DNA of 64,000 nt, taken from the NCBI RefSeq assembly GCF_037042905.1, contig NC_087245.1:32552001-32616000 (forward strand), written 5' to 3'. The position numbers and the translations under genes are program-made. Source of the DNA: Lytechinus pictus. Its lineage: Eukaryota. Every line of letters starts with the position of its first letter. Position 1 is the stretch's first letter. The notes below the pieces were generated by a model. That model did no database searches. It saw only the letters and a program-made list of their open reading frames with translations, and was not told the DNA's origin. Of this stretch, positions 2,879-47,533 are shown in pieces.

Positions 2879-5800
2879 TAGTATCCCGTAATTAGTAACC
2901 AACTGGAATAAAATTATTGGAAATGGTTTTTTGACTGATTTGAGTAGGTATGAGTGTCAACATTTACCAAAAAAAAGTTAGGAGGAATACGGGTTGGGGA
3001 AAGTGCTTTTTTTCAAGGTCAAAGGTCAATGACCTTTTTAAATATACTGTATCATGGTATCTCCCAGATAAAATATTACAGGTTGGTGATCATGGTGTCA
3101 AAATGCACAGATTCTTACAAGAAGATCAAATAAAATCAAATCAAGTACCTACAATGCTCATTCACCCATGAAATTCAAGTTCAAAGCCTTTCAAAGTTCA
3201 ATGACCTTTATTACATTATATACCATATACGGTATAATGGTATCTCTGAGATGAAAAGGTGCAGGTTGGTGATCTAGGCGTCAAAATGCAGAGGTTCTTA
3301 CAGGAAGATCAAATAAAATCAAATTAAGTACCCAGAATGCACATTAAACAATAAAGTTCAAGGTCAAAGCCTTTCAAAGGTCGATGACCTTTTTCCTACA
3401 TTATATACCATATACGGTATAATGCTATCTCTCAGATGAAAAGGCGCAGGTTGGTGATCTTGGTGTCAAAATGCAGAGGCTCTTACAGGAAGATCAAATA
3501 AAATAGAATCAAGTACCCGGCCAGAATGCACATTAAAGTATAAAATTCAAGGTAAAAGCCTTTCAAAGGTCAATGACCTTTTTTACATTATGTATCATAC
3601 TGTATAATAGTATCTCTGAGATGAAACGGCACAGGTTGGTGATCGTTGTATCAAAATTCCCAGATTCTTACAGGAAGGTCAAATAAGATAAAGTTAATCA
3701 CCTAGAATGCATACTAACCCATAAAGTTCAAGGTCAAAGGTCAGTGACCTTTTTACATAGGCTATATATCGTATAAAGGTATCTCTGAGATAAAACGCTG
3801 CATGTTGGTGATTTTGATGTCAAAAAACAATTTTTGCAAGAAGATAAAAAAGACTCTAAATAATCATACAGAATAATCCAATATCCAAAGTCAAAAGTCA
3901 AAAGTTGATTAATATTTATATATCCATGCATGATTCCCCCAAAAAAGAAATTAATCCATTATATTCACATTTTATTTGTGAATAATAGAAAGAAAGATAA
4001 CTATTTGTAATGAACACTTGGAAGTCTAATAATTTCACTCTGAAAGAAATAAGGATAAAAAATGGCCATGGAAAATATATTTAGGAGTTAAAGGTCAATC
4101 AACTATGTCAATAGCGTCAGGGAATTTAAATAAATAGGTCGATATAACGTGATTGTGGCATGTAGGTATAGTGATTCTGATGGGAAAAAGACTGACCTGC
4201 GTGGAAAAAGAACACAAATTTAATAGTTGAATCCTTGACCAATGATGATGTCAAAATACAAGTTCGAGGTAAAATTGGATCAAATAGCACTTTTTCTTAT
4301 AATATACTGTAATGCATTGACAAAAGTGTAAAAAGAAAATCATGTGTGATATAATTTGAAATGGTGACAATGGTGAAGTTACCTAAAGTAGCAGAATTTA
4401 GATATGCATTTTATAAATCTAAATCAAGGTACTAATTTCTCTGTAGCAATAGGTCACTAACCTCAAATGCTACAATCAATACTATAACACTATAACTTAA
4501 TCTGTAAATGGAAAGGATAGGCCTAAGTCTTATGGCAAGCATCATCCGAGAACATTTTCATATAGCCAGGGACAATGACGAAGAATTAAAATAAGGCAAT
4601 CATTAGAGCTGCAGCTTTTTTGTCATAGATGAAGTTAAGTGTCTCAACTTCAACAAAGAGTAATTGAACTCTTGAAAACCTTCTGACATTTTCAAGACTT
4701 TGATCTGGCCCATTCAATGAAAGCCTAACGTTCTGTCAAGGGATATCAGACCAGGATCTATATTATTACTGATAATTGCACAGCTTGATTCTCAAGAACT
4801 GGAAGTGGTGCTGTATGAGTTTTGTTAGGTCGATGGATGTGTACTTGTAAGCTATTATCTCCTTTTGAATTTCATTGTTATATGCCTAATTTGTGCATGA
4901 TAACAATCAGTTGTTCTGGACCAAAAACATGATCCTTGTACAAACTGATACCTAGTAGAAATAGCATCATGGGTGACGTACGGCAGAGAGCAGATATGAA
5001 GTTTTGTCTTGCAGCATTAGCATCACAAGAGATTCTGGCAGCTCGCAATGAACTGATGAAATGTACTAATAATACGGGAATTCACTTTTGTTGAAGTTGA
5101 TATATATATAATTTACTACATGTATATGACAGAAGCTGCAGCTCTAATGATGGCCTTCATTTCATCATCATCATCATCAAAAGACACGACAACCTTGATT
5201 TAGATATAATGATGCATTAAATGCTGCTACTTAAGATAAAATTAATTCAAATTATATACTTGATTTCATTTATTTTTTCAGTGCTTTTGGCAATGCATCG
5301 TATATGAAAAAGTGTTATTTGGTTATCAACTTTTTTAACTTAATTTCCACTGATATTTTGGAAAGGGCTCATTGACCTCTGACCCCTAAATACATTCTCC
5401 ATGGCCTTCATTATTTCAGACCGAAATTATGAAACCTCCATGTTTTCATTACAAATTAGCCATGGTTTTTTACATTATTCAGATATAAAATATGAACACA
5501 AAAGATATTGTTTTTGGTTATTTTTATATCATATAGATTATATATTTCCTCTGATCTAGGATTTCAAGGGTGAGTATTCTTTATACTTATTTTAGTGTTG
5601 TTTAATCTTCTTGTACAAGTCTTTGGATTTTGGCACCAAGATCACCAACCTGCGGTGTTTTATCTCAGAGATACCATTATTATTATCTAATGTTAAAAAG
5701 GACATTGACCTTTGTCCTTGAATTTTATGGGTGAATGTGCATTCTCGATGCTTAATTTTATTTTATCTTCCTGTAAGAATATGCGTGTTTTGACACAATG

Positions 5801-15978: not shown

Positions 15979-16743
15979 CTATTTGGTAACAGTGTTGATA
16001 ACCTGTTTACCTGATATATCAGCATCTTCATGGTCATGTACAAAACTTCCCTGTTTTGGTATAGAACCATCATCGTCGTTCACTGCACTAGATTCACTGT
16101 GAGAACGCGTATTGCGAGAGAAAAGGTCACTAAGACATTTCCGAAATTCGGTTAACCGAGTCCAGTATATGACTGGATTTAATATGCCATTTAATCCCAT
16201 CAAGGTAAATGATAGGGATAGATAAATCGTATACCAACGGTATACCTCGAAAGTTGTTGCGTTTCGAACCCAGTCTGTCTTCAAAAAGGGAATAAAGTAA
16301 TTAAAGATAATCGGAAATAAGCAAACGACATTCGAGACTGAGACGAGTGCAAATGTAGCCAGGACACTCTTGTTTTGTTTAACGCGCTTTTCTAGCGCAC
16401 GCCCCGACAGACCGGCCTTGCGCCCAGCGCTTGCGATAGCCCAGTACACGATAACGTAACAAGCCACACAAAGACATTGTGCTACAACGCTAATGATGAA
16501 TAGAAGATAATTTTGAATTCCCGAATAACGATGACGCTCAATTAGTTTGGCGATGATGAAGAAGGCCCCGATAGGGATAATCCAAATGAAGATACAGGCC
16601 AATATGCAGCGAGGCGCCGTTACCAGGTTCCGCTTGTTGAATGGGTCGAAACGGAGGGTGATGAGTCGAAACATAGCTACAGATAAGGTGCTACCTGCTT
16701 CGATGATCAGTGATGCACGCATTACCAATATAACATTGTTATC
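15979..16743 (-). CDS. Class A (rhodopsin-like) orphan GPCR, coding exon 2 (TM3-TM7 and C-tail)
   Basis: Acceptor ttgttgtcgtttcag|GAT, phase 0, open for 254 aa. Five hydrophobic helices with AMFRL (DRY site), FIWIIP, CLFP and NPVIY. Confidence 0.9.
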   Translation of the reverse strand, partial: DNNVILVMRASLIIEAGSTLSVAMFRLITLRFDPFNKRNLVTAPRCILACIFIWIIPIGAFFIIAKLIERHRYSGIQNYLLFIISVVAQCLCVACYVIVYWAIASAGRKAGLSGRALEKRVKQNKSVLATFALVSVSNVVCLFPIIFNYFIPFLKTDWVRNATTFEVYRWYTIYLSLSFTLMGLNGILNPVIYWTRLTEFRKCLSDLFSRNTRSHSESSAVNDDDGSIPKQGSFVHDHEDADISGKQVINTVTK

Positions 16744-16956
16744 CTGAAACGACAACAAAAAGAGGATTTCTTTAATATATATTTATCCCATTCCTGTAAT
16801 GCGTTCTAAGGCAAGTTTCTAAAATATTTCGATCAAAAATGCATCAAATTTACACGCATTATTGGCAGTGAGTCCAAACTTCGCGTACGTACTTCGCGGA
16901 CTGTCTTTATCTAAAAAAACTAGCCAATATCCTTAGAAATCTGACATCATTTTTAA

Positions 16957-17351
16957 AGAGAAATTCCAGTAGTTGCAGTAAACACTGATTTCATGAGAAA
17001 GTCTGTAAAACCAGGCTTAATTGTCAGTATATCATCGAGGATCTAGATCTGGTACAGTTACATAAACTGAACTTTGTGAAATCTTGAAATCTACTCTGAA
17101 AAATGTTCAGACTGAACTTCCCCAACACAGATAAGCGCACGTGGGACAGTGTATAATTATTGCTTTGAGCGTCGGGCCCGACGCTCTACCCGAATCCTGT
17201 GCTTATTTGCTGATTTATCAGCAATTACACAATTTCTTCCAGAATCCTTTGGCACATGCGTTTTATTTATACAAACAGACACTTTGGTGGTCATTTCATT
17301 GGATTCTGTATGAACTCATTTTGATATCGTTACCAAAACTAGCATTTACCT
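16957..17351. mobile_element. TTAA-flanked MITE (Kolobok-like)
   Basis: ttaa|agagaaattccag ... ctagcatttacct|ttaa. Same family as 44160-44561. Confidence 0.85.
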
Positions 17352-18250
17352 TTAAGCATTTTGTCATCAATCTTATATAAATAACTTACCTTCTGAGCTT
17401 GAGTTTTTTTTAAATCTCCACAAAAAGTTTGGTCCGCGAGGTCACACTTTTTCAGAACAGTTTTCCAGCACAGCGCGCATTCGTCGATCGGAATAGAATT
17501 TTGAGATCGCGATACCGGCGGCGAAACCCCTTGACCTACTTCACATTTTCGTAAATGATTTTATAGTTTACGATCTGGCCGTCAGACACCCCATCATACT
17601 TGTAAACTTGTCGGTAATACAAAATGGATTAGTCAAAATAATATCCCTTGGTAAGTAATGTGTTCGACCGATAAAATTTGCCAAAATCAACCAAATTAAA
17701 ACAGTGGGTGATTTCAAGTTCAGTGTTGACCTTTTGGTTTTTGTGTTGGGTCAATTTTTACATAACATAGTATAACACCAAATATAAAAGGAAGATCGTC
17801 CTTAAAAGTCACTCACTAGTTGTTGGTTGTAGAGAAAGGTATACTAAAGGGGTGTGAACATTAAAATTCGGGGGTTCATGTGCTTGTTTTTAAACGATCC
17901 ATCAGCACCTTTGTTGGAGCAAAATAATGTGCTTTTAAAAAACACAAAAACGCATCGAAATGCTTGTCTCTACATAAACATAAATTCTACACCACTGTCC
18001 CATTAAATCAAACTTGAGGTCACATTTGACTTCGCAGCACTGCAAAGTAAAGTATTCTAAAGGGGTCGAGGCGTTTGAAAAGATTATTTTCAGCTAATAG
18101 CTTCGTAAAATAACACACACAGATGCTGATAGAGTGCCGATCACTGGAAAAAAAATCAGCCGATGCCTGTAGCTGATTACTCACCTGTTCTTGTGACGTC
18201 AACGCGCATGGCGTAAAGTATGCGCAGATAGGGATGCGCACAAACATAAA

Positions 18251-18674
18251 GGCCCGAATTCACAAAGGTTTTGAAAACCCACGGTTGAGTCCATGGTTTA
18301 TGCAGATTTCCTGTATAAATTACGCTTACTTTACCGCGTATCGGGCGCGTGTATAAAAAATGTCCAATGCTGATGCGCGCTTTTGTCACAGTGCGCCAAA
18401 TTGACGCCTATTACCATGGTTAGATACGCTATTTTATGCATGAGTCCACCGTTTTTATTCATGAGTCCACTCTTCAAACAGTGGACTCATGAATAAAATA
18501 GCCATGGTAACAGGCGTCAATTTGGCGAACTGTGACAAAAGCGCGCATCAGCATTGGACATTTTTTTATACACGCGCCCGATACGCGGTAAAGTAAGCGT
18601 AATTTATACAGGAAATCTGCATAAACCATGGACTCAACCGTGGGTTTTCAAAACCACCTTTGTGAATTCGGGCG
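18251..18674. mobile_element. Near-perfect ~420-bp palindromic MITE (PIF/Harbinger-like GGCCC ends)
   Basis: gcccgaattcacaaagg ... cctttgtgaattcgggc, with arms of about 190 bp that are nearly identical. Confidence 0.85.
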
Positions 18675-19425
18675 AAAGGGAACGTCCTTAGAAGCAAAAA
18701 TGAAATATTTTAAAGATAAAATAACCTCAGAATACCACCTCGGAATACCGCCACTCGTCTTTCCACAGAGCCTTTCGAAATTGTCATTGAAAATACGGTT
18801 GTATTGTTAGACCAATTCCGAAGATTGCAGATAAACATTCTATTACAAAATTAGATCTTTAGGATCACTGTTACAATTGCCAAGAATTCAATTATATCAT
18901 CCTTCTAAAACCACCTAAAGGTGCATAGTTGCGTCCTTTTAGGTGTCACATTGACATTACCTAAAAAAAAGAAATTATAGCTTTGCTTTTTTTTATTATA
19001 ATGAATGTAATTTTTGCACCTTCGTTTCTAATGGTGCAGTGTGACCGTAGGGTGATCGTATCATGCTAATCCCACGAACTCACTTGGGTGACGTTCGGCA
19101 ATCGTACAAGTTTCGAGAAAGATTCGTGATCGTCGATAGGTCTACGATTTTCTTCTACGCGGAGGTATAAACTTTTTTGCAAAAAAAATCTTAAGTTCAT
19201 AGCCTTTAACGCATCGCTGGGTCATCACGGTCATCGTAAGATCATTTTTTTTTTTTTTTTTTTGTAATAGTATTTATTAATCATGTGATGGCGCTCTCGT
19301 AACAAGAACAGCAAATTATCCGTCTCTCCTGATTTTCACATTGTTTTGAGGTCTAAATTGCAGTTATATGCAGGATTACCAACCAAGGACAACTACATAA
19401 CGTTCCTAATCTTATATTGGATAAG

Positions 19426-20421
19426 ATGTCTTACGACCTAAGAAAATCTCAGAAGGGAAAGCCTACAAAAACCACTGGATCTGTACCAACGAAAAGGCCA
19501 AACCCATTCTCGCACAACATGTACAAAGCTCTACCGGATCAGCTTACCCCCAGCCAGAGACCTGGGGAGCCAAGCCAGGTAAGCAGCCCTGCCAACACAT
19601 CCGTGATTACACCTGTTAACGGAACTAACACCTCTACGCCTGACCGCACATTCCAAGATCAAGACTTCGAACAATCTAAATTGGATTTATTCCTAACAAA
19701 GAAATTCGAAGCTATGCTTGAAAGGGCTGTTGATCGGCTTGCTAAGAAGATTGAAGCTGTTGAGTCACTTCTAGGGGATTCCCTGGAATTCGAGCGACAA
19801 AGGGTCAATGACCTTCAGGTCAAACAAAATCATCTAGAGACCAGGATCAAGAACTTGGAAGAAGAAGTGGCAAAGAACGGAGCCGCTACTAACAAATCGG
19901 AACGATTCTCCAGGAGAAATAACATTCGTCTGGTTGGGATCGACGAGTATCAGCAACCAACATCTCTTCCCGCCGATAGCGCATCTTCATCCGATAGTTC
20001 ATCAGCTTCTGAACCTCACCAGGAAGATTGCATCACGCTAGCCGAAGACAAACTACGATCTTTCTTTGGTATTACGTCGAAAGTTGAACGAGCTCATCGT
20101 GACGGTAGGAAAACCAACGGAAGACCTCGTCACATTCTTGTGAAGCTTCTGTCATATCGCGATAAAGTTGATGTAATGAAAAGAGCTCGCTCCGTTCTGA
20201 AAAACCAGAGTTTCTTCATCATCGATGACCTTACCAGCGCTGACCTCCAGGAAAAACGTAAATGGTCCAAACAGGTCCAGGCCCTTTACGCCCAAGGAAC
20301 CAAATTGCGTTTTTATGCAGGAAAATGGCGACTCCGTGGAGGTGACCCTTTCAATTTTGAGTCTTCATCCGACGACACCTCTCGCATCACAACCATTGGT
20401 CACGCTGGAGTAGTGTTCTAA
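19426..20421 (+). CDS. LINE ORF1 protein (L1-ORF1/Transposase_22-like: coiled coil, RRM, CTD), 331 aa from the first ATG
   Basis: Heptad region followed by SRRNNIRLVGI, VERAHR, PRHILVKLLSY.DK and FIIDDL. The ORF is uninterrupted. Confidence 0.88.
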   Translation: MSYDLRKSQKGKPTKTTGSVPTKRPNPFSHNMYKALPDQLTPSQRPGEPSQVSSPANTSVITPVNGTNTSTPDRTFQDQDFEQSKLDLFLTKKFEAMLERAVDRLAKKIEAVESLLGDSLEFERQRVNDLQVKQNHLETRIKNLEEEVAKNGAATNKSERFSRRNNIRLVGIDEYQQPTSLPADSASSSDSSSASEPHQEDCITLAEDKLRSFFGITSKVERAHRDGRKTNGRPRHILVKLLSYRDKVDVMKRARSVLKNQSFFIIDDLTSADLQEKRKWSKQVQALYAQGTKLRFYAGKWRLRGGDPFNFESSSDDTSRITTIGHAGVVF

Positions 20422-22555
20422 TTTTCTCAACCCGCTGTATGAACCAAGGTTAGTTTCAATCTCCCTGTGACGGCAACGTTCCTTCTTCTTTTTTGCAAAT
20501 ATACATAAAGAGATTAACGTTTTCACCTTTGTTTTTTTCCTTTTTTTATCGCTATTCATTTCGATAATGAGATATCATCCTTCTCAAGTGATTAATTTTA
20601 GTCTCCGAATCATCTGAAGACCCGTGGTTTTGATTTTTCGTGGGATGTTTACAACTTGGTCACTGAGATCTCGGACTATTATCACGATTATACAATTATT
20701 ATCAATAACTTCCTCGATCGTTCTTAAGACGGCATGATTGAATTTTATCTTTTCGCATGATTCATGTGTTTTCGCATTCATGATTTTCCTCCAGGTCAAT
20801 TAAGCCTCAAGTACTTTTTTTTGCAACAATGATGTCGACTCCTTGAGAGAAAATTTGATGTTCTTTTTGATTTTGATTCAACTATAATTATGTCGAGAAG
20901 AAATAACTCGATGTTCGTTATAATTTTGCTATGACAATATGCATATCCTCGATCTGGATATCAATGTTATTATTCGTATAAATGGTAAAAAGGGGAAACT
21001 GCTTTTTTATATTTCACTCTCTATAACATCTAAGTGCTGTTAGTGGATATTTCAATTAAAGAAGGCCTACCATGTACTAAATCATTCTTATCTCGCCTAT
21101 ATACGATCTATTTAATTGGCACCCTTTCACCAATAGGCTCTACTTTTATATTTCCCAACATTGATCCGTTTTTTATGCATCTAGATACCTTATTCGTTTG
21201 CATGTTGTGTGTTCACCTAGCTTTAGGTTCAAGCCTGAGGCAAACCATAAATTTATAAATCGAAATCATAACTGAATCGCACAAAAAATCTCGTTCATCA
21301 AAAGTAGTTTATGTTGCTTATTAATATAATTCATGTATAAATCACTTACACGGATGTTTGTGTGAGTGTGCTTTTAAGTCCTAGTATGCACCAATTCTAA
21401 ACAATCTAGCTACACTACTTTAGTCTTATTAAGCAGTTAAGGGTGGATGCAGGATCTTACACACTCTGATTTACCGGCCATCAATCATTTGTATTCATTT
21501 AATGTAGAATCGTTATTCCACATGATGTTGGCATCTGTTTTTTGTTTGTTCTTTTTGTAATATGTGCAATCTAATCACTTATATACACTGGTTTTATTGT
21601 TTTCCTTTCTCGTACGTTCATGATTTTCTTAAAATGAGTCGATTAGAAACCACATGCGCTTTAGCACCGTGTTTACAAAAGACATTGACACGATAGAGGC
21701 ATTTACTTCATAATTTCTCACAACTTGAAAAGTCTTCCTACCAAATTTGAGAAATCACAATGTTGAAGCTTACAGGGTATGATTGTCTCTTTTTCATGTT
21801 CATCCAATCAAAGTGTCAACGAGATCCAATATATAAAAAGTGTTTACTTTCTGATTGATATCAATTGCCATCTATTTTGAACAGAATCACGCATCTCCTT
21901 TTCACGTTGGTCATCAGTATTTGTTTTATGTTCTATTGGTACAGTTTTCCCCACTTCGAACATGCTGCTTTGTAATTTCTCTTCCCCGTTATAATATATC
22001 TGAATTGATCAGTAGCAAATAGCTATTTGCTATATACTACGTTTTATTTTCCTAAAATCATACTCAATTTCAGTAAAATCAAACTCATGGCTACGCGCCT
22101 CTTGTTACTTCTATCAAGACACCTATACTGTTTTATCGCCCAAGGTGTGCTTGACGTTAAGCTTGATGTTCATCCAATTTTAAGTTTTATCAGGAACCAA
22201 ATTTGCAAATTTGTTATATAAGGTTAATACGACTAATTGAAGTACACTTCATTGCTAATTTGCTTACTACTCCTTGATACGGATAACACATTTTGCAGAT
22301 GTCTCCTTTTGTATTCATTACGCACCAGCAAACTTGACAATATAGGCTACATCAGAAATTGAACTTTACTGAATTAATCGTGCTTGGAGCGCGAAGCCTT
22401 ATCATTGGCTTGCCAATGACCTCCTTGTCTCTTTTGTTTGGAAATGACTCATTAAAGGGTTAAATGCAGTGAATTGTTATTTTATTTGTCAATTCAATAT
22501 CAGTGACGAAGGGAAACTCCCTGGTCATATATATTTTGGACTTATCGAATTTACC

Positions 22556-22828
22556 GCGTAGAGGCTCCCTGCATCGCGCCGGTTCCTTGGGGTGCAGTTC
22601 GGGTCGCGGTGGGGAGCTGTGAGGCTTTTGCCGGGGGTTGGTGGACCGGGACAGCACCGGAATCTCCAATTCTGGGTGGCGACATGTTTGCGTCTGTTCG
22701 TGTGGTGCAAATATTCGAATTTTCTGCTGTCCCGGTCCGCCGGCTTTCGGCGGGAGCCTCGGGGCTCTCCGCTGCGACTCTGGCTGCATTTGCAGAAGAA
22801 TCGGTGCGTTAATGAGCTTCGCCTGCGT
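22556..22828 (+). ncRNA. Long G-U-rich RNA stem-loop in the LINE inter-ORF spacer
   Basis: 22591-22656 pairs without gaps with 22725-22790 (45 WC, 19 G-U, 2 mismatches, counted by hand). There are further outer helices and two apical hairpins. Confidence 0.8.
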
Positions 22829-23534
22829 CCCTGCAGTGAATTTGAGAACTACCTAGATCTTGCATCGTTAACACAATCTTTAATCATTGCAATGTTTTGG
22901 TTCTTTTTAATATTTTGCCTCTTGTTTTTTCCCTGAGAACCACTTACCACTGACGTATATTTACGCAATGATTTTTTGTATGTATATTCATATGATCGAT
23001 CTTTCTTATTCTACATATCATACAGGCTTAAATCCTGCTTCCTGCTTTGTTTTTTTTTTTTTTACTATTTAGCTTTCTCCATTTGATATGACCTCGTTTG
23101 TTATTTTTGATAGATTTCATCACGCTTCAGGAGAGACGGACACAGTATGATTATTATTTTTTTTCTGTCCTTGCCTTAGTTTGCTTACTTACGTTCTTGT
23201 TGATATTTGTTGCTTGTTTGTTTACATTTGGCCTATTTTAAGTTATTCACTAAGGATCAGTCAAGTTTGCTTTGTTTTCATTTTTGTCCTGTTTTTCATC
23301 ACCTTTATTTCCAACCCCCCCTCCAAACTTTGCACTGCACAAGGTCATTATATATCTCACACTAGTGTTCAATTCCCCTGCTTTATTTTTGTTCTTTCTT
23401 CTTTTACTCCTCTTTTATTGCCTTTTCACTGACACACATTTTTTTTTCTCCTCTTCTACACATACTCGGGAACAGGCACGTAGCACAGTGTATTGCTTCC
23501 TTTAGGTTTCGTTTACCCACCATCTCCCCTGCTA

Positions 23535-26500
23535 ATGACGGATTTTTCTAGGTTTCCATTTAGCTCTCTAAATAACGATGACTTGTTGTCTCTCTCGGCG
23601 CAACATGGCGTTACTCGCACACTAGATAACCATGATAACTCCAACTATGATGCACACATACAGAATTTTATGGACAATAATACATCCGATCTTAATTACA
23701 ATTTGGATGCAAATGATCACTTCGGACAGCTCACTACATCACATTATTTCACAGAACAACATTTCAAATCATACATTACATCAGATAACACTGGCGAAAG
23801 TTTTTTTCTTCTCCATTTTAATATCAGAAGTGCCAGTAAAAACTTTGATAAACTTAGACTATTTCTAGATAAAAACCGGTTTCCGAAATCTTCATTTATT
23901 GGTTTAACCGAAACATGGTTCTCTGATTATCCATGTTCCCTCTTCACACTCCCTGATTTTGATTTGATTGTTAACAATAGAACGCTAAGACCTGGGGGTG
24001 GTGTAGCTCTTTACATACCGCAACAATACGACCATACTCTTATAGCTAACATGACCATATCTAACGACGTTCTAGAAACCTTATTTGTTGAAGTCACAAA
24101 CCCCAAAGGTAAAAACTTAGTACTTGGTGTTTTTTATAGACCCCCTCAATCTAATGTTAATACTTTTTTAGAATCTCTTAATGAAATTTTATCAAATCCT
24201 GTTTTGAAAAATAAAGATTGCTTTTTTATGGGTGACTTTAATATTAACTTAGTAGATTGTAATTCAAACAGCACCTCACATGAGTTTCTTGAAATGTTTC
24301 TTTCATATTCTTTTTTACCGCTTATCACTAAACCGACAAGAGTGACAGATAACTCGGCCACTTTAATTGATAACATTTTTAGTAATATAACTCAACAAAT
24401 TCCCAAAGCCGGTATTATCCTTAGTGACATTACTGATCACTTTCCAATTTTTGCTAAATTATCTACAAATAAAATTATCATGAAAGAAGCATTCAATACT
24501 CCATTTCGAAAGATAACTGATGACAACATAAACAATCTAGTTAATAATTTAAATACAACAGACTGGTCAACTGTTTTTGAATCCACAGACGTTGATGACG
24601 CATATAACTTTTTCATTTCCAAATTAAACTCTTCTCTAGATACTCACGTTCCTTTTACCACTAACAGAAAATCAAATTATAAAAAGGTTCCACTCCACCC
24701 TTGGATTACTAAATCACTTTTGAGATCAATCAACCGAAAGAACAACCTTTACTATAAATACATAACTAAACAAAGTAACGAATCTCGCTTTAAATATACT
24801 TCATACAAAAACACACTCACTACTTTATTACGCATTGCAAAAAGAGAATATTATACCTCCCAACTCAATTTGTTCAAAAACGATATGAGGAACACATGGA
24901 AAATCATTAATGGAGCATTAAACAAAAACAAAAAAAGTACTTCTATAACAAAAATAAAAGTAAACAATACAACTACCGACGACAACATCTCAATAGCACA
25001 AGAATTTAATTCATATTTTTCAAACATTGGCAACAATCTGGCAAGCAAAGTCCCTCAAACTCATAAATCTTTCAACAGTTTTCTTGACAACCCAAATCCA
25101 AACTCTATATTTTTTAATCCTACGAACACAAGAGAAATTATTAATATTGTTAATAATCTACAGACCAAGAAGAGCCCAGGTTTCGATGGTATTCCTAATT
25201 TCCTACTTAAGAAAATTATTTTAACTATCGTCGATCCTCTGGTCCACATATTTAATGTTTCTATGAACACAGGGAAGGTACCTAACCTAATGAAAATAGC
25301 CAAAGTCATCCCCCTTTACAAAAAAGGTGATAATCAACTTGTTTCTAATTACCGTCCTATTTCATTGCTCACTTCGTTATCTAAAATTCTCGAAAAACTT
25401 ATACATACTCGTACAATTACGTTCTTTAATAAATTCAATACTTTTTCGAACTCGCAATTTGGTTTCCGCGAAAATCATAGCACCTCGCATGCAATTTTGA
25501 CTTTTATTAATAAAATTACTTCTTCCATAGATATAGGTTGTCATACTGTTGGTATTTTCCTGGACTTCTCCAAGGCCTTCGATACCATTAACCACGATAT
25601 ACTTCTTCATAAACTTTCTTTTTATGGTATCAGGGGGAAGGCCTTGGAGTGGTTCAAGAGCTACCTAACAGACAGGTCTCAATTTGTGTCAGTCAACAAC
25701 GTTGTTTCTTCTACTCTTCCTATTACATGTGGAGTACCACAGGGTAGTTTACTTGGTCCTCTTCTTTTTATTACATATATTAATGACATTAAAAAAAGTT
25801 CAAATTTACTAACATTTGTATTGTTTGCTGACGATTCGAACATTTTCTTTTCTCATGATAACGTAAACCAACTTGTAAGAATTGTAAACTCAGAACTTAT
25901 ACATGTCACTGACTGGATTAAGGCGAATAAACTATCACTTAACTTACAAAAGACGAATTTTATGCTTTTTAGTAACAGAATAAATACAATACCTGACAAC
26001 ATAATTTTTGATAATACTGTTCTTGAAAATGTTTCAGAGACAAGATTTTTGGGGGTTACTATTGATAATAAGCTATCATGGAAACCACACATCAATAATA
26101 CATGCAAAACAATTTCAAGAAACATCGGAATTATCAACAAACTCAAATATTTTCTCCCATCTCACACTTTACTTACACTGTATCATACATTAATATTACC
26201 ATACATTAATTATGGCATTTTGGCATGGGGTTGTGCGATCCAAACACAATTACAAAGAATACTGTTGCTGCAGAAGAAGGCTCTTAGAATAATTTTTCAA
26301 ACCCAATTCAGATCACACACAGATATACTATTCTTCCAAAATAATATTCTTAAAGTGAGTGATTTATATCTTTTCCAACTCGCCCAATTTATGTATAAAC
26401 TAAACAAAGATGATCTCCCAACAATTTTTTCAAATATGTTCTGTAAAAACTCCTCTATACACGATTACCCAACGAGACAACGTAATTGTTATCACCTACC

Positions 26501-26672
26501 CCCTACCCGTACTATATTAGCGAAAAACTCTTTTATCTTTTTTGGACCTGTGTATTGGAATTCCCTGCCCAACGACTTTAAAGAATCTACAAACCTTAAT
26601 ATTTTTAAACGCAAACTTAAAAAGATGCTCATTTGTCAATACTCCACACCAACAAGTCAAGCTAACACATAA
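23535..26672 (+). CDS. LINE ORF2: APE endonuclease and reverse transcriptase, 1045 aa from the first ATG
   Basis: EN motifs NIRS, LTETW, GGGV, YRPP, GDFN, IDNIF, TDHFP. RT motifs NYRPISLL, QFGFR, DFSKAFDTINH, GVPQGSLLGP, LFADD. No stops or frameshifts. Confidence 0.97.
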   Translation: MTDFSRFPFSSLNNDDLLSLSAQHGVTRTLDNHDNSNYDAHIQNFMDNNTSDLNYNLDANDHFGQLTTSHYFTEQHFKSYITSDNTGESFFLLHFNIRSASKNFDKLRLFLDKNRFPKSSFIGLTETWFSDYPCSLFTLPDFDLIVNNRTLRPGGGVALYIPQQYDHTLIANMTISNDVLETLFVEVTNPKGKNLVLGVFYRPPQSNVNTFLESLNEILSNPVLKNKDCFFMGDFNINLVDCNSNSTSHEFLEMFLSYSFLPLITKPTRVTDNSATLIDNIFSNITQQIPKAGIILSDITDHFPIFAKLSTNKIIMKEAFNTPFRKITDDNINNLVNNLNTTDWSTVFESTDVDDAYNFFISKLNSSLDTHVPFTTNRKSNYKKVPLHPWITKSLLRSINRKNNLYYKYITKQSNESRFKYTSYKNTLTTLLRIAKREYYTSQLNLFKNDMRNTWKIINGALNKNKKSTSITKIKVNNTTTDDNISIAQEFNSYFSNIGNNLASKVPQTHKSFNSFLDNPNPNSIFFNPTNTREIINIVNNLQTKKSPGFDGIPNFLLKKIILTIVDPLVHIFNVSMNTGKVPNLMKIAKVIPLYKKGDNQLVSNYRPISLLTSLSKILEKLIHTRTITFFNKFNTFSNSQFGFRENHSTSHAILTFINKITSSIDIGCHTVGIFLDFSKAFDTINHDILLHKLSFYGIRGKALEWFKSYLTDRSQFVSVNNVVSSTLPITCGVPQGSLLGPLLFITYINDIKKSSNLLTFVLFADDSNIFFSHDNVNQLVRIVNSELIHVTDWIKANKLSLNLQKTNFMLFSNRINTIPDNIIFDNTVLENVSETRFLGVTIDNKLSWKPHINNTCKTISRNIGIINKLKYFLPSHTLLTLYHTLILPYINYGILAWGCAIQTQLQRILLLQKKALRIIFQTQFRSHTDILFFQNNILKVSDLYLFQLAQFMYKLNKDDLPTIFSNMFCKNSSIHDYPTRQRNCYHLPPTRTILAKNSFIFFGPVYWNSLPNDFKESTNLNIFKRKLKKMLICQYSTPTSQANT

Positions 26673-27079
26673 CCTAAACTAAAACTACATAATAACTTAA
26701 CCTTTAACTGCCAATACATTTGTCAAACTTTACTTATAAAAAAAAACAACAACACTGCAACATGATACAATACATTACGACCTGTGCACCTGCCATGTTC
26801 CTCCTTTCATTTGCACTTTTTATTTGCACCTCCCTTATCTCCCTCTTTCTTTCCTTTGCCACTTTTCCCTCCCTATTATGATTTTGTAAGTACTTTTCTT
26901 TGGTGTTACCACTGTAATTATTATTATTTGAATTACTTTCTCTTATTTTTGTTGTCGCTTATTCGTTTTATTTTGATATTTGTGGATTACTTGTTTTAAG
27001 TTTGTCTTCTGTGTCCGTCTCGATTTTTGTATAGAGTTGTATTTATAGTTTGTTTATAATTAGTATTGAAACTAAGTTT

Positions 27080-27126
27080 AGGGGCTTGCCTTCTCTACAA
27101 GCTTTTGCTTTTCTTGGCAAGTCCCT
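27080..27126 (+). other. 3' UTR stem-loop of the LINE (putative RT recognition signal)
   Basis: aggggcttgcc ... ggcaagtccct pairing, about 190 nt upstream of the tail. Confidence 0.6.
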
Positions 27127-27408
27127 CCGTTCTTTTCTTGTTTCTTTTCATTGATAATATTACTGAAACAAATTGTAGTTTTGTTTAATTTATATTCAAC
27201 ATTTGTTACGAAATTTCATTGATTTGTCTGTATTATCGATTATATTGAATATGTATTGTTACTTTGATTATATTTTGAAAAAATTGTTGAACGGAAATAA
27301 AATCTAAATCTAAATCTAATTAAAATCATTCAATTCAAATTCATACAAGTAATATAATATCAACAAAACACTGTTCACAAAGTCAAATAAATAAATAATT
27401 GTTCATAA

Positions 27409-28124
27409 TGCCTAGTTGACACTTTCACGATTTTTGGTCCCGCACTGCCCCGCAATGAATGCGTGCCAGTGCGTGACACTTTATGGCACGACTTGGCTAT
27501 ATCAGTTCACGCAATGTCCCGACACGTTCACGACATGTTTGCGCATTGTTTGCGCATAGTTCGCGCATAGTTCACGCAGTGTTCACGCACTGTCCCGACG
27601 TGCTTTCAGCAAATATTCTCGACACCCTATTTCTGTGACGTATCTAGCGCAAATTTAAATATTCAACGTTCTGGTGTTGACACCCTCTACGTTCGTTGAT
27701 TAGAACGACTCACATTGATCACGTGGTCTGCACTCACAATTTTGCGCATGTCATGCGCGAACTATGCGTGAAGTATGCTTGACCTATGCGCAAAGTATGC
27801 GCGACCCTGTCGTGAACTAGTCGCGAACTGCGTGCCACTACCCCGGGGGTGGGGTACCCACTGTTTTTACGCCACGCACTGGCACGCATTGGCACGACTT
27901 GTTTGCGCATAGTTTGCGCACAGTTCACGCACTGCTGCAATGCGGGAAGTGCGTGGCAAAATTTTCAACATGTTGAAAATTTTTTTTCGCTCTTCACGCA
28001 TTGCTGCGCATTGCCGCTCATCGTCCCGCCCCTTCCCGCAAGTGTCGACGCATTGGCACGCATGACGCAATATCAGTGCGTGAACTATGCGGGAACCGAA
28101 AATCGTGAAAGTGTCAACTAGGCA
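27409..28124. mobile_element. PIF/Harbinger-type MITE with TAA TSD
   Basis: taa|tgcctagttgacactttcacgatttt ... aaaatcgtgaaagtgtcaactaggca|taa. Confidence 0.92.
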
Positions 28125-28447
28125 TAATACAAAAAATTATACATACAAAAAATACAGAATATAACATTCGAGTCATCTACAACAAAGTAAATACTTAGTC
28201 TGTAGAAAAAAAAAATACAGACAACAACAACAAAAATTTTATAGCAACGCAATTAAATTGAATGAGTAAAATGAATGAGTAACCCCCCCCCCCCCTCCAT
28301 ATCCCATCTAAGCCCAGCCCAGGAAGCGCGGCCTGCTTCCCTCCCCTCAACCTAGCTACCCTCCATTTCAATCTGCATTCTGTGCCGCAATCATGATCTA
28401 ACTTGTGCACCTAAATGTATGCTTGAATTTTCTTAGCCCCAGCATCT

Positions 28448-29673
28448 CTAGAAAATAAACTTGTCCCATTTTTTGAAATGGTTTGTTAATAGACCTCTCT
28501 GTTCAGCTAGTTTTCTTTCTTCTAGTCTATCTTCTTGTATTTTTTCCTTAATATGGTTAAGGGTCGGTGGATCTTTTGTGTTTCTACTATTCTTTAAAAT
28601 CATATACTTTATCAGGATTATTATGTGATTTAATAATTGAGCCTCTCCTTTAGTTGAACATTCCACGCCTACGTGTACACCTTTTTTATCTATATTTGTA
28701 ATGATAGGGAGTTGAAGCATGTTCCCACATTCTTTCCATATAGTTTTTATCTTATCACATGAAAAGAATATATGATCATATGTTTCTTCTTCTTTACTAC
28801 AGAATGAACATAAATCATCTGTTGTCATTTTAAATAAATATAAATATTTTTTTGTGTATAGTATATTGTGTAATATTTTATATTGAAATTCTCTGAGTCT
28901 ACTATTCAGAGTCGATTTTCGTGGTCTTAGAAAAATCTCAGAGATATCCTTTTTTGTTATATTATATTTTTCCTCAAGCTTTTTAAATGCTTGGGGTATA
29001 TCCGATTTCATACTTATAAGAGTATCGTATATTCTTTTTGATGTGATGTCTTGCAAATCAAAAATCCTGCCCTTTAATTGAAAATCCAAAACTAACTCAC
29101 TATCTATGGAACTTTGACCATTTTTTTTCAGCGAGTCCTTCCAAAAGTATGGAATATTATTAAAAATTTCGAGTATATTTTCTATTTCAAAACGATCCAA
29201 CCCCATTTTTTGAAAGGTCGAAATAGACTTCATTTTCCCATCTTTATCTACAATATGATGGAGTTTATAAATTTTCTTCAAAAACAGCTTTTCATTATAA
29301 TATGTTTGTCCTTTCAAACGGATGAACCTATTATTAAAAATGATCTCATTTCTTTTATTCTTCTCTTCTTTAAGTAAAAACAATTTCTTATTAAACCATA
29401 CATCTAACATTTCTGTATAAAATTCCGGCAGTTCAAATCCTATCAAATCCATTGTGAGGTTACTAAAAAAAATTAGCAATCCTCCCATACCGTGTGCTAA
29501 GTATCTGAAATATTGTTTCCATTTCATTTTTGGCTCTCCCATTATAAGTCTTTTAATCCACATAATTCTTTGTGTCTTAATGAATAACTGAAAATCTGTC
29601 ATTTTTAGACCAGCATGATCATAATCTAAATAAACAATGTCTCTTTTAATTTTATCTCTACCACCCCATAAAA
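28448..29673 (-). mobile_element. 5'-truncated Tx1/L1-clade LINE, open ORF2 C-terminus with zinc knuckle; its 3' UTR continues to a poly(A) at about 19247
   Basis: FLWGGRDKIKR...GLKMTDF, LREFQYKILH and CSFC...EETYDHIFFSC. atcatt is duplicated at 19241-19246 and 29674-29679. Confidence 0.9.
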
Positions 29674-30199
29674 ATCATTGCTCGGGTATCAACGATCTCC
29701 ATACGACCTCTGTATGATGTGGTGTCAACCATTCACGGACATTGAAAAATATTCACCAGGCTAAATTTCGTTCACAAACATTCACATTTGATACCAAACC
29801 AGTTCAATTAATAGCTTCCAAATCGACGGCAAGATCGCAAACTGCAAAAATATTGACGAAAAGTATGAAGTAGGTCGAGGGGGTTCGCCGGTATCGCGAT
29901 CTCAAAATTCTATTCCGATCGACGAACGTGCGCTGTGCTGGAAAATCGTTCTGAAAAAATGTGATCTATCTTCGCGGACCAAAGATTTTTAGAGATCTAC
30001 ACAAAACCTCAAAATCAAAAGATGGGATATCTATATCAGATGGACGGCAAAATGTAGAATCGGTCAGCACCTCATTTTACTCACATTTTTTTTTTATATT
30101 ATCTGCTTGCAAAATGATGATATCGTGATGCTTGCTGAGAAGTTACGATTTTTTTCGGAACTATAAATTATTGACGAAAAATATTTTCATGAATACTGC

Positions 30200-44561: not shown

Positions 44562-47533
44562 TTAAATCCATTGAAAGTACTTTAAACTGTTGGCGCGCTA
44601 GAAATTTATCTCTAGTTGGGAAGATCTGTGTCATATATAAAGACCCTATTGCTGACACAACTTCTTTATTTTTTTTCCGTTTTGTGTATCAAAGTACCCA
44701 AGAATTTGTAAGACAATTGAATACAATTTTGTTTAAATTTATATGGGGTGGTGGCAGTGATAGGGTCAGAAAATAATTTATATGCAATGAATTTATTGGA
44801 GGTAGCTTAAAAATGATTGATCCATATGCTTTCTCTGTGGCACAGAAAATGTCATGGGTCAAAAAGCACCTGGATGATAACTATGAAAGCTTGTGGAAAT
44901 CAATTGAAATGTCTACTTTAAGTAATTTTAATGATAAAAGTGATATTTTATGGAAATCCTATGCTCCTTTCAGTATTTTGAATAAATTTACATCCTGTCA
45001 ATTGGCTGAATCACTTCATACATGGTATATATTCAGAGAATATTTTGTTAAAACTGAATTCAATGTAACGTTTTCTTCAATAGGTTTTTGCCAGTGCATT
45101 TGGTTCAATAAGAATATCTGTTCAAAATCAAAGCATTATTTTTTGTACCAAGACTGGCTTGACAAAGGAATAGTTTATATTAGTGATTTGCTTAACCCTC
45201 CCCATCCTGGCCATAAACTCTTTATAGAACTTGTATTAGATTATGATATCAGTAAACAGGATAGGAGGAAATACAATTTTCTATTGAAAAATAAACCATC
45301 TGATTGGTTGGTCACATCCGACCTGTCCACAGATATGATATTTGACAAAATAAGAAACCAACTATTGAAAACTCACAAGGTCCCCAAATTTGCATATAGA
45401 GTTATATTAGAACCATGTCTTTCAGAAAAACAAATGACTTTTTGGAAAGACCTTGATGATACTGGTCAGGTCGGTTGGGAAAAAAATAATCTAAATAATT
45501 TCAAATGTACTATTAGAGTGCGCATTCGTTCTTTTTATTTTAAGTTATTTCACAGAGCAATAGGTTTAAATGATTTTTTGTATAAATTTAAAAGAAAAGA
45601 CTCCCCTAACAGTTCTCTTTGTAAAGCTGCCCCTGAAACGTATGTCCATCTGTTTATAGAGTGCCCTGTTGTTAAACCCATTTGGGTTGAAGCTATTAAG
45701 GCTATTGCTAAGAAAATTGATAAACTACAAACTGTCTCTATATTTGAAAAAATGTTTCGGGTTTTGAGTCTGACGAATTCCTAACTTTTTTGTTTCTCTT
45801 ACTTAAATATTATATTTATATATGCAAATTTCAAAATAAGCCACTAAGTTTTGAAGGTTATAAAGCCTTTATTGCTGTTAATAATAAACTTGAATATGGT
45901 ATTGTATTGCCCCCCAAAAAAAAAAACTTACCATGCATTTTAAGAAATGGAGATTTAACATATAAACACTGATATTGCTATTTAGCACATGAAATTTATA
46001 CATGTATCATGTGTACATTTCCATCTTCATATAAATTTACTTTATCATGTTTATGGGAGTGTTTATGTCTTTTTTTTTTTTAATGATTGTCTTTTCTTTG
46101 GGTTTTGCTTTTTAAGTGTAATGCTAATTTGGTATCTTATGCTGCAGTATCTATATTTTGGTGTTTAATACCCCTTTCATACTGCCCTCTTCATTTTTCA
46201 CCTGCGAACTTCGCCGGCGAACTTCTCCGCCTCGCATTCCTTACTTCCCCGGCGAAGAAAAAAATGTACCCTTTCGCACTGACATTTCTTCCCCGGCGAA
46301 AGTCAACGGGCGATTGCAGAACAAACGAAAGAAAATTGTAAACATTACTTCTTCCCTATTACAAAAAGGTATAAAAAAAAATAATTACAACACATTTTGG
46401 AAGTATTACGATAAAAACAAACAATATCACCTTGTTTTTATATTTTAGCGCATTTTATACATGTAAAAAAAATTATGTTCGAGGGTATCTACTTGGCCAT
46501 AGCATTCAGCTGAGCTTGCAACTATCGCGCGCGGAATCTCGGTACAGGGGACTTCGGGAGAGAAAAAAAAATGACCTCTGACGTCACCCTTTTTAGATCC
46601 GATCCATATTGCTTCTGATTTGGAAAATCAATAAAACATTTAAAAAAATGTATATATCCGCAAAAGCCCTTAAAATGTTTTGTTTTCAGTTCGATATATC
46701 AATACAAAAAATTAAGCTTTCGCTTCATGATCTCATTATTTATTTAATGAGAAAGGCCTACGTATACATCATGTTCATGATTTTGAAATAATACCATAAC
46801 AATTTCGAAATCCTTCTGATGGGTTTGGTATTAAACATTTTTTTCTGTTACAAAAAATGAAAAACAACTCTTATTCAATTCCATAACGTAAACAAGCAAA
46901 AAAAGTGTGTATATCATATCAATTGGTACAAAAATGAATAGCGGATTTCCAGATTTACACATATTGCAGCATCAATGAAAATATTGTTTAATCAAAACAA
47001 TTTTGAAGAAGTAACAAAACACATCGCAGATACCACACACACCCTACCCCCCCCCCTCACACACACACACACACACACACGCCAACGCACACAACCTGTC
47101 ATCAGTCGTCTGCTAGACGATGGTGGTAAAAAAGCATCAACTCCGTAAAAAAATAAAGAATTAAAAAATTATTCCCATTTTCTAAATAAAAATTCACTTT
47201 TAAAATTGAAACTTGATGAATAAAACTATTTTCATCATAGTAGGGGTAATGTATTTCATGATATAATCACCCGCACAAATAAAATTACTTTATGATTCTT
47301 GAGAAAATGTCATTTTTGTTCTTCTGCAATTTACTTTTACATTAACGCGACAAACTTGAAGAAGCTGCTTGTCTGGAACGTCATGAAGTAAAAAAATGAT
47401 AATAAAAACAGTCACCGATATCTTTTCTTCCATTGTTCTGCTTTTATAAAGACCAACTTATCGCCAGGGTGATCTTTCCCTTTAACTTCATTTTCATGAG
47501 ATCCCACAATTTCAGCCAACTCTTGATGATCTG

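Follow-up and report, generated by a model that had tools for sequence, protein, structure and literature searches.

Within the window, by which we mean the whole 64,000-nt stretch of Lytechinus pictus DNA analysed here, an intact LINE carries a hairpin that pairs far better on the element's sense strand than on the opposite strand. The question raised by this locus is how such a one-sided duplex came about and whether it does anything for the element that bears it. The first-pass annotation had described an ungapped 66-bp duplex with A-poor arms in a GC-rich island of otherwise AT-rich DNA. Our recount of the 5' arm (22591..22656, plus strand) against the 3' arm (22725..22790, plus strand) returned the same 45 Watson-Crick pairs, 19 G-U pairs and 2 mismatches and counted 7 A in the first arm and 3 in the second, and the GC-rich island was borne out. 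The host was likewise correctly called an intact LINE, both of its ORF frames being open and an RVT_1 domain present, and the distance of about 700 nt from the duplex downstream to the ORF2 ATG was confirmed by the ATG at 23535. When both strands of 22556-22828 were folded, the plus strand reached -176.7 kcal/mol (z -13.1; 0 of 200 shuffles as good) and the minus strand -105.3 kcal/mol (z -5.2), and the fold is thus strand-specific rather than equal on the two strands. Short open frames run across the island, as expected from stop-poor, A-poor sequence.

A palindromic DNA element inserted late between ORF1 and ORF2 of one LINE lineage

The full-length LINE (19286..27319, plus strand) is an element of probable APE-RT type with two ORFs and a short AAATCT-type repeat tail, and its limits were taken from full-length copies, which align from about 19286 to about 27319. 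It is a putative member of the CR1 group (L2/Daphne/Crack), a label that follows the first-pass annotation. ORF1 (19426..20421, plus strand; open frame 19357-20421) was assigned the first in-frame ATG of the sequence as its start. This frame is intact at 99-100% in six other copies of the LINE; it had no match in Pfam and a weak match to human L1 ORF1p (2ykp/2yko, E 0.03), and judging by its sequence it is probably L1-type, or Tnp22-like. A type II ORF1 is known from the L1, CR1 and L2 lineages, according to excerpts of PMC4120745. ORF2 (23535..26672, plus strand; open frame 23484-26672), with an in-frame ATG at 23535, encodes a reverse transcriptase and probably an APE endonuclease; Pfam returned RVT_1 at E 7e-38 and a weak Exo_endo_phos match at E 5e-5, slightly below its cut-off. 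Between the two ORF frames lies a non-coding spacer of 3.1 kb (20422..23534, plus strand). Non-coding ORF1-ORF2 spacers of 2-3.6 kb were also seen elsewhere in the LINE clade and in some other families (L061-L065, L075, L080, L130).

Near the start of ORF2, T-rich AG sites at 23504-05 and 23550-51 resemble splice acceptors. Splicing of the spacer was rejected: five copies that start at 23478-23595 (L141-L145) have unrelated DNA upstream and are therefore plain 5' truncations, not spliced retrocopies. No splice joints were listed in the thinly covered RNA runs. The 5' ends of these five copies fall within 120 nt around the ORF2 start, several of the copies keep long open ORF2 frames, and the cluster may be due to an internal start of the RNA or to a second site of stalling. 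Around the LINE, the window also holds a near-perfect palindromic DNA element upstream (18262-18675), which is symmetric on both strands and drew a chance MIR6426 match in Rfam, and a GC-richer, apparently inverted-repeat element directly 3' of the LINE end (27400-28125). Three further frames, 28448-29674 (minus strand), 44777-45784 (plus strand) and 15979-16782 (minus strand), comprise two zf-RVT frames, which are fragments of other LINEs, and one weak 7tm_1 match.

The genome was searched with the hairpin, and the best 40 of 308 candidates were scored. Seventeen matches at 92-100% represented 16 copies of the LINE, in which the hairpin was whole in 12, split by an insertion in 1 and cut inside in 3; the LINE family is young, its copies being mostly 92-100% alike. 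The other 23 loci among these 40 matched over the hairpin only, at 70-76%, and the 13 of them that were inspected had flanks unrelated to the LINE. The hairpin-only loci belong to one free-standing palindromic family of about 310 bp, whose members are 82-90% alike. A first look at the size of this free family gave 2086 candidates, 40 of which were scored, and its 18-nt end motif had 560 matches in the genome versus 0 for the control. A consensus was built from 39 free copies after four duplicate loci had been dropped, with the near-identical neighbours L040 and L046 both kept. The resulting MITE-like consensus is 316 bp long and non-coding, with arms of about 120 bp, and its two strands fold with nearly the same energy (-220.7 and -232.6 kcal/mol); the 39 free copies also fold symmetrically on the two strands. 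At two loci, L019 (1410-1892) and L032, the same MITE is centred in a longer palindromic element, as nested foldbacks.

Aligned end to end with this consensus, the hairpin of the LINE is a captured copy of the palindromic MITE-like element, hyper-mutated from A to G on the LINE sense strand and spanning 22534..22853 (320 nt, plus strand). The apex of the hairpin (22657..22724, plus strand) corresponds to the MITE's non-palindromic centre. The age of the insertion relative to the LINE could be read from copies of sister families, five with an ORF2 81-87% alike and one, L160, about 85% alike in DNA. The hairpin was absent from 6/6 of these copies, which have spacers about equally long and, in several cases, an intact ORF2. 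An empty site was found in L061, L062 and L160, where alignment of the left flank stops at 22525 and that of the right flank resumes at 22872; the flank-to-flank distance is 347 nt here versus 28 nt in these three copies, a difference of 319 nt. The sister copies thus have an unoccupied site of matching size, which shows that a MITE-like DNA element inserted late between ORF1 and ORF2 of one LINE lineage.

The captured element has TA on both sides (22532-33 and 22854-55), and the free copies have a right flank with T in 9/10 and A in 8/10 and a weaker left flank with T in 5/10 and A in 7/10. The flanking letters suggest a TA target-site duplication (TSD), the sister empty site being highly diverged. 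The first-pass annotation had set against its own reading the possibility that the island is an independent DNA MITE with its own TSD. Much of this proved correct, as a free palindromic family with hundreds of copies and TA flanks exists, with the TSD itself suggested, not proven. Just left of the insertion, a short hairpin motif, GGGA-AAC-TCCC (22509-22525), is conserved in those three sister copies; the remainder of their spacer is about 61% alike. In the sister LINEs L061 and L062, a long AT-type simple repeat (about 5270-5410) lies in the spacer before ORF2.

The substitution signature and RNA from free copies

The substitution spectrum was scored over 22545-22835 against the 39-copy consensus, which stands in for the actual donor copy. 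The captured element differed from the consensus by A>G at 41/77 sites, T>C at 14/80 sites and 25 changes of all other types, and A>G significantly exceeded T>C on the LINE sense strand (Fisher p=2.6e-6); the mean for free MITE copies is 2.9 A>G and 2.2 T>C changes. The A>G changes were concentrated in the duplex, affecting 25/36 A of the core arms (21 A in the MITE and now 7 in the 5' arm, 15 and now 3 in the 3' arm), as against 3/10 paired A in the apex, which is the least edited part and has partly refolded after the substitutions. In ORF2, changes on the LINE lineage, polarised with two sister families, comprised A>G at 21/956 and T>C at 40/814 sites. ORF2 thus lacks an A>G excess, which indicates a local and not a general bias, although coding constraint applies in ORF2. 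From the MITE to the LINE-borne element, A fell from 85 to 46, G rose from 66 to 106 and CpG rose from 16 to 28.

The same 66 pairs comprise 63 Watson-Crick pairs, 0 G-U pairs and 3 mismatches in the MITE. In 18/19 of the present G-U pairs the G stands where the MITE has A, which identifies these pairs as products of A>G changes in A-U pairs and not as selected wobbles. The replacement of A-U by G-U, which keeps pairing on the sense strand only, accounts for the polarity, the A-poverty and the GC-rich island together. All the features named in the first-pass annotation can be traced to this editing. Free-energy comparison of the two strands gave a sense-minus-antisense MFE of -72 kcal/mol for the LINE-borne element, compared with +4.5 +/- 10.2 kcal/mol (range -15.9 to +23.5) in the 39 free copies. 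The earlier claim that this polarity is unlike that of decaying DNA palindromes therefore held, and the RNA-level origin that had been proposed for it is strongly supported by the strand-specific A>G changes.

The neighbours of the changed sites were also compared. ADAR favours G as the 3' neighbour of the edited A; no such preference was seen at the fixed sites, where 5/11 A before G, 18/26 before A and 10/14 before C had changed, all of them small numbers. On the 5' side, A after G had changed at 6/18 sites versus 35/49 for other A (p=0.0096), with no such trend in the free copies. This 5'-G avoidance agrees with the ADAR 5'-neighbour rule set out in excerpts of PMC8586724, by which A after G is disfavoured. 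T>C changes were also about 3 times above expectation (14 versus about 4.4; Poisson p=2e-4), an excess that ADAR acting on the sense RNA does not explain. Private spacer changes among the LINE copies showed the same direction (T>C 38 versus A>G 14), and this general sense-strand T>C excess is possibly an RT error bias, with G placed opposite U. None of the best 40 of 308 candidates was a partly edited intermediate. Later change is hinted at only by 22794-95, where AA varies among LINE copies as AG, GG and GA. G>A changes at edited sites in L006 and L012 were set aside as evidence, their CpG context making them uninformative.

The genome contains four A_deamin (PF02137) loci, a domain that also covers the tRNA-editing ADAT1. 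The first-pass annotation had proposed a search for A-to-G mismatches in RNA-seq. We aligned three stranded runs (about 6% of each) and one contig set to 21900-23700 at 85% likeness, a filter that favours edited sense reads; strand was assigned by the usual library convention, matched DNA from the same animal was not included, and the differences reported are the 40 listed of 73. RNA coverage was almost confined to the 5' arm, with the LINE flanks mostly uncovered and the LINE's own RNA barely sampled, and at this depth the LINE transcript gave no sign of editing. The reads on the 5' arm were of the free-MITE type, with T at 22631 in 49/51 and loose ends that continue as MITE. Among the differences listed, plus-strand-RNA reads carried a non-A letter (reference G) at 22634, 22635 and 22636 in 5, 17 and 34 of 51, versus 0/25 opposite-strand reads at each position (p=6e-9 for 22636). 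The least changed of these three A, at 22634, follows G, and the most changed, at 22636, precedes G. Again among the differences listed, G was present at 22620, where the MITE has A and the LINE has T, in 23/33 reads versus 0/23 on the opposite strand (p=3e-8). Since the LINE has T at this position, G brings no mapping gain there. Only 0-1 of 39 genomic MITE copies have G at the 22620 and 22634-36 columns. The search thus brought out strand-dependent G in free-MITE reads at 22620, 22635 and 22636; in living tissue, the parent duplex seems to undergo A-to-G editing at positions that are fixed in the LINE. In contigs of a second species label (run X4), which are single contigs of depth 4-5, the edited LINE hairpin was found at about 94% likeness with G at 22613 and 22634-36, so the editing event may predate that split.

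We therefore consider it very probable that the hairpin records A-to-I hyper-editing by ADAR, which the LINE's reverse transcriptase made permanent and which has passed to all 16 copies examined. A fossil of this kind had been listed last among the alternatives of the first-pass annotation, and it is strongly supported by A>G changes at more than half of the sites, by their restriction to one strand and by the avoidance of a 5' G. As the empty sister site shows, the history began when a palindromic, non-autonomous DNA transposon of roughly 316 bp entered an active LINE copy, in whose non-coding spacer insertions are tolerated. Within the LINE transcript the transposon would then fold into a near-perfect duplex of about 120 bp, as computed for the consensus. 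Long near-perfect duplexes are typical ADAR substrates. Over half of the A would have been deaminated, with A after G spared; the signature is present in the sequence, and ADAR is the enzyme to which it points. During target-primed reverse transcription the LINE RT would have read inosine as G and so made the edits part of the DNA, either all at once or in the course of several cycles. Finally, the edited copy founded the present family, all copies of which show the edited form. Most likely the edited hairpin is now a passenger that the LINE tolerates, with few good ADAR sites left. Human L1 RNA was unedited by ADAR1 in culture according to PMC5224506, the excerpts of which describe no comparable duplex.

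Possible roles of the hairpin and other origins of the A>G excess

A wider claim would make ADAR and the element's RT a recurring heritable mutator in LINE lineages, and a beneficial one here. On this proposal the family could be founded only once editing had left the duplex rich in G-U, short of ADAR sites and able to escape dsRNA sensing, and repair of G-U to G-C together with the gain in CpG would then have built a new GC-rich structured module. We regard this as a tentative and rather doubtful extension. A search of the region between the two ORFs in 70 further LINE-related loci (L061-63, L065, L075-L140), many of them not full-length, brought up no convincing second G-U-polar duplex, and the long helices present were strand-balanced DNA palindromes or simple repeats.

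It is less likely still, and in our judgement improbable, that the edited hairpin was co-opted and is kept by selection as a translation element or IRES for ORF2, as a packaging or localisation signal, or as a duplex hidden from dsRNA sensors, all of which would be compatible with an editing origin. Each of the 12 copies in which the site is covered completely has the hairpin, the edited state recurs in the second-species contigs, and ordinary re-initiation at ORF2 would be unlikely past a 3.1-kb spacer. In the aligned stem, moreover, 6/6 T>C changes face an edited A, turning G-U into G-C, and none faces an unedited A. Yet this compensation pattern reached only p=0.07 in a lineage with a general sense-strand T>C excess, and compensatory evolution of the stem was not accepted. 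All six long-spacer sister-family copies do without the hairpin, several of them with an intact ORF2, and editing weakened the sense fold from -220.7 to -186.8 kcal/mol. The stem was no less variable than the spacer among 8 copies (shared variants 1/132 versus 40/2769, p=1; all variants p=0.38), a comparison of low power. The hairpin had no Rfam match, in that no covariance model matched over 22534-22853 at E<=5; over 17000-28500, Rfam gave 6 chance-level matches, none in the hairpin, and comparison with phage records gave no match. The IRES-like, packaging or localisation, siRNA-precursor and evolved-disguise roles offered in the first-pass annotation thus found no support, given sister copies without the hairpin, a weakened stem and no visible constraint.

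Breakpoints in the spacer point in another direction. Three of 12 fell at 22727-22744 within the 66-nt 3' arm (p=0.002, a post hoc value that assumes uniform breakage); they are the ends of two 5' truncations and of one internal deletion, and they lie where the arm is richest in GC. This cluster suggests that RT pays a mild cost here rather than gaining anything, and the hairpin may slightly hinder the enzyme. Another copy has an insertion of about 550 bp at 22731-22751 (breakpoint and insertion loci: L146, L147, L074 and L152).

The same breakpoints hint at RT difficulty in the stem and would fit an A>G excess produced without a deaminase, by the LINE's RT or by a transcription-linked strand bias, for example through misincorporation while a strong stem is unwound; such a bias would likewise be strand-specific. 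Elsewhere, however, the lineage favours T>C over A>G, in ORF2 as in the private spacer changes, and the 5'-G avoidance and the editing-like signal in free-copy RNA at the same sites do not need RT. This explanation is already largely refuted, and we give it very little credence.

Slightly less credible again is an origin in DNA, through decay or GC-biased repair of the palindrome (cruciform mismatch repair, CpG effects or a GC-rich donor copy), which could supply the T>C part if G:T were repaired to G:C and accords with other substitution types at about twice the level of a free copy (25 versus about 13), a sign that the captured sequence has also aged, but whose A>G part is refuted by the asymmetry of 41 versus 14 (p=2.6e-6). 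DNA processes hit both strands, yet the 39 free copies fold symmetrically and long palindromes near 66 other LINE loci have balanced G-U and A-C counts; runs such as AAAA changed to GGGG stand outside CpG context, and no G-rich free copy occurred among the best 40 of 308 candidates.

Probable heritable RNA editing and its relation to known systems

A-to-I edits usually vanish along with the RNA that carries them. With fixation of ADAR edits by the LINE's RT as the preferred reading, an animal retrotransposon family appears to hold such edits permanently in DNA, and one species supplies the parent in its unedited form, the insertion site without the insert and RNA of the parent with edits. This would imply that, in cells contributing to the germ line, ADAR encountered full-length LINE RNA before it was reverse-transcribed. 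Hairpins with G-U pairs on one strand inside retroelements offer a simple genome-wide screen, and also carry a warning, because their wobbles and apparent compensatory changes mimic selected RNA structures without selection. The contribution of ADAR editing to the evolution of Alu and other retrotransposon subfamilies is called assumed but undetermined in excerpts of a 2016 review (PMC4982230), and the present family is a direct natural test case for it. The titles and abstract openings surveyed on ADAR, DNA editing and retroprocessing, with subscription papers mostly outside the scope, describe no LINE family in which ADAR edits have become fixed, and the words spacer, intergenic, hairpin and stem-loop do not occur in PMC13343379.

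In avian retroviruses, ADAR-type A-to-G hypermutation was described for RAV-1 (Felder 1994) and ALV (Hajjar and Linial 1995), both cited in excerpts of PMC8586724, and like the LINE case it consists of clustered A>G changes in the RNA of a reverse-transcribing element. The present case differs in its non-LTR host, its passage through the germ line and its founding of a family of at least 16 copies, and in that the duplex is a captured DNA transposon with a surviving unedited parent. The ALV case of Hajjar and Linial, from 1995, reportedly involved an inverted repeat, with the edits fixed in proviral DNA.

Inverted Alu pairs resemble the LINE hairpin in forming long intramolecular transposon duplexes with heavy A-to-I editing and 5'-G avoidance; their edits, the subject of PMC4982230 and PMC4365171, are described at the RNA level, whereas those of the LINE are in DNA. 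APOBEC 'DNA editing' of retrotransposons also leaves a clustered, strand-specific signature of a host deaminase in genomic copies, but, according to excerpts of PMC2873906, it consists of G>A changes from C-to-U on cDNA with no tie to a duplex, whereas the A>G changes here are confined to an RNA duplex. In the retroprocessing of C-to-U sites in plant mitochondria, RNA edits are likewise reverse-transcribed into the genome; that process, as presented in excerpts of PMC4987113, concerns site-specific C-to-U changes in organelle genes and involves recombination, in contrast to ADAR hyper-editing of a nuclear mobile element. The parent element itself is like MITE and foldback transposons in being short and non-coding, with inverted-repeat arms, a high copy number and TA flanks. 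Unlike typical MITEs, it has slightly asymmetric ends, and its LINE-borne copy now moves by retrotransposition.
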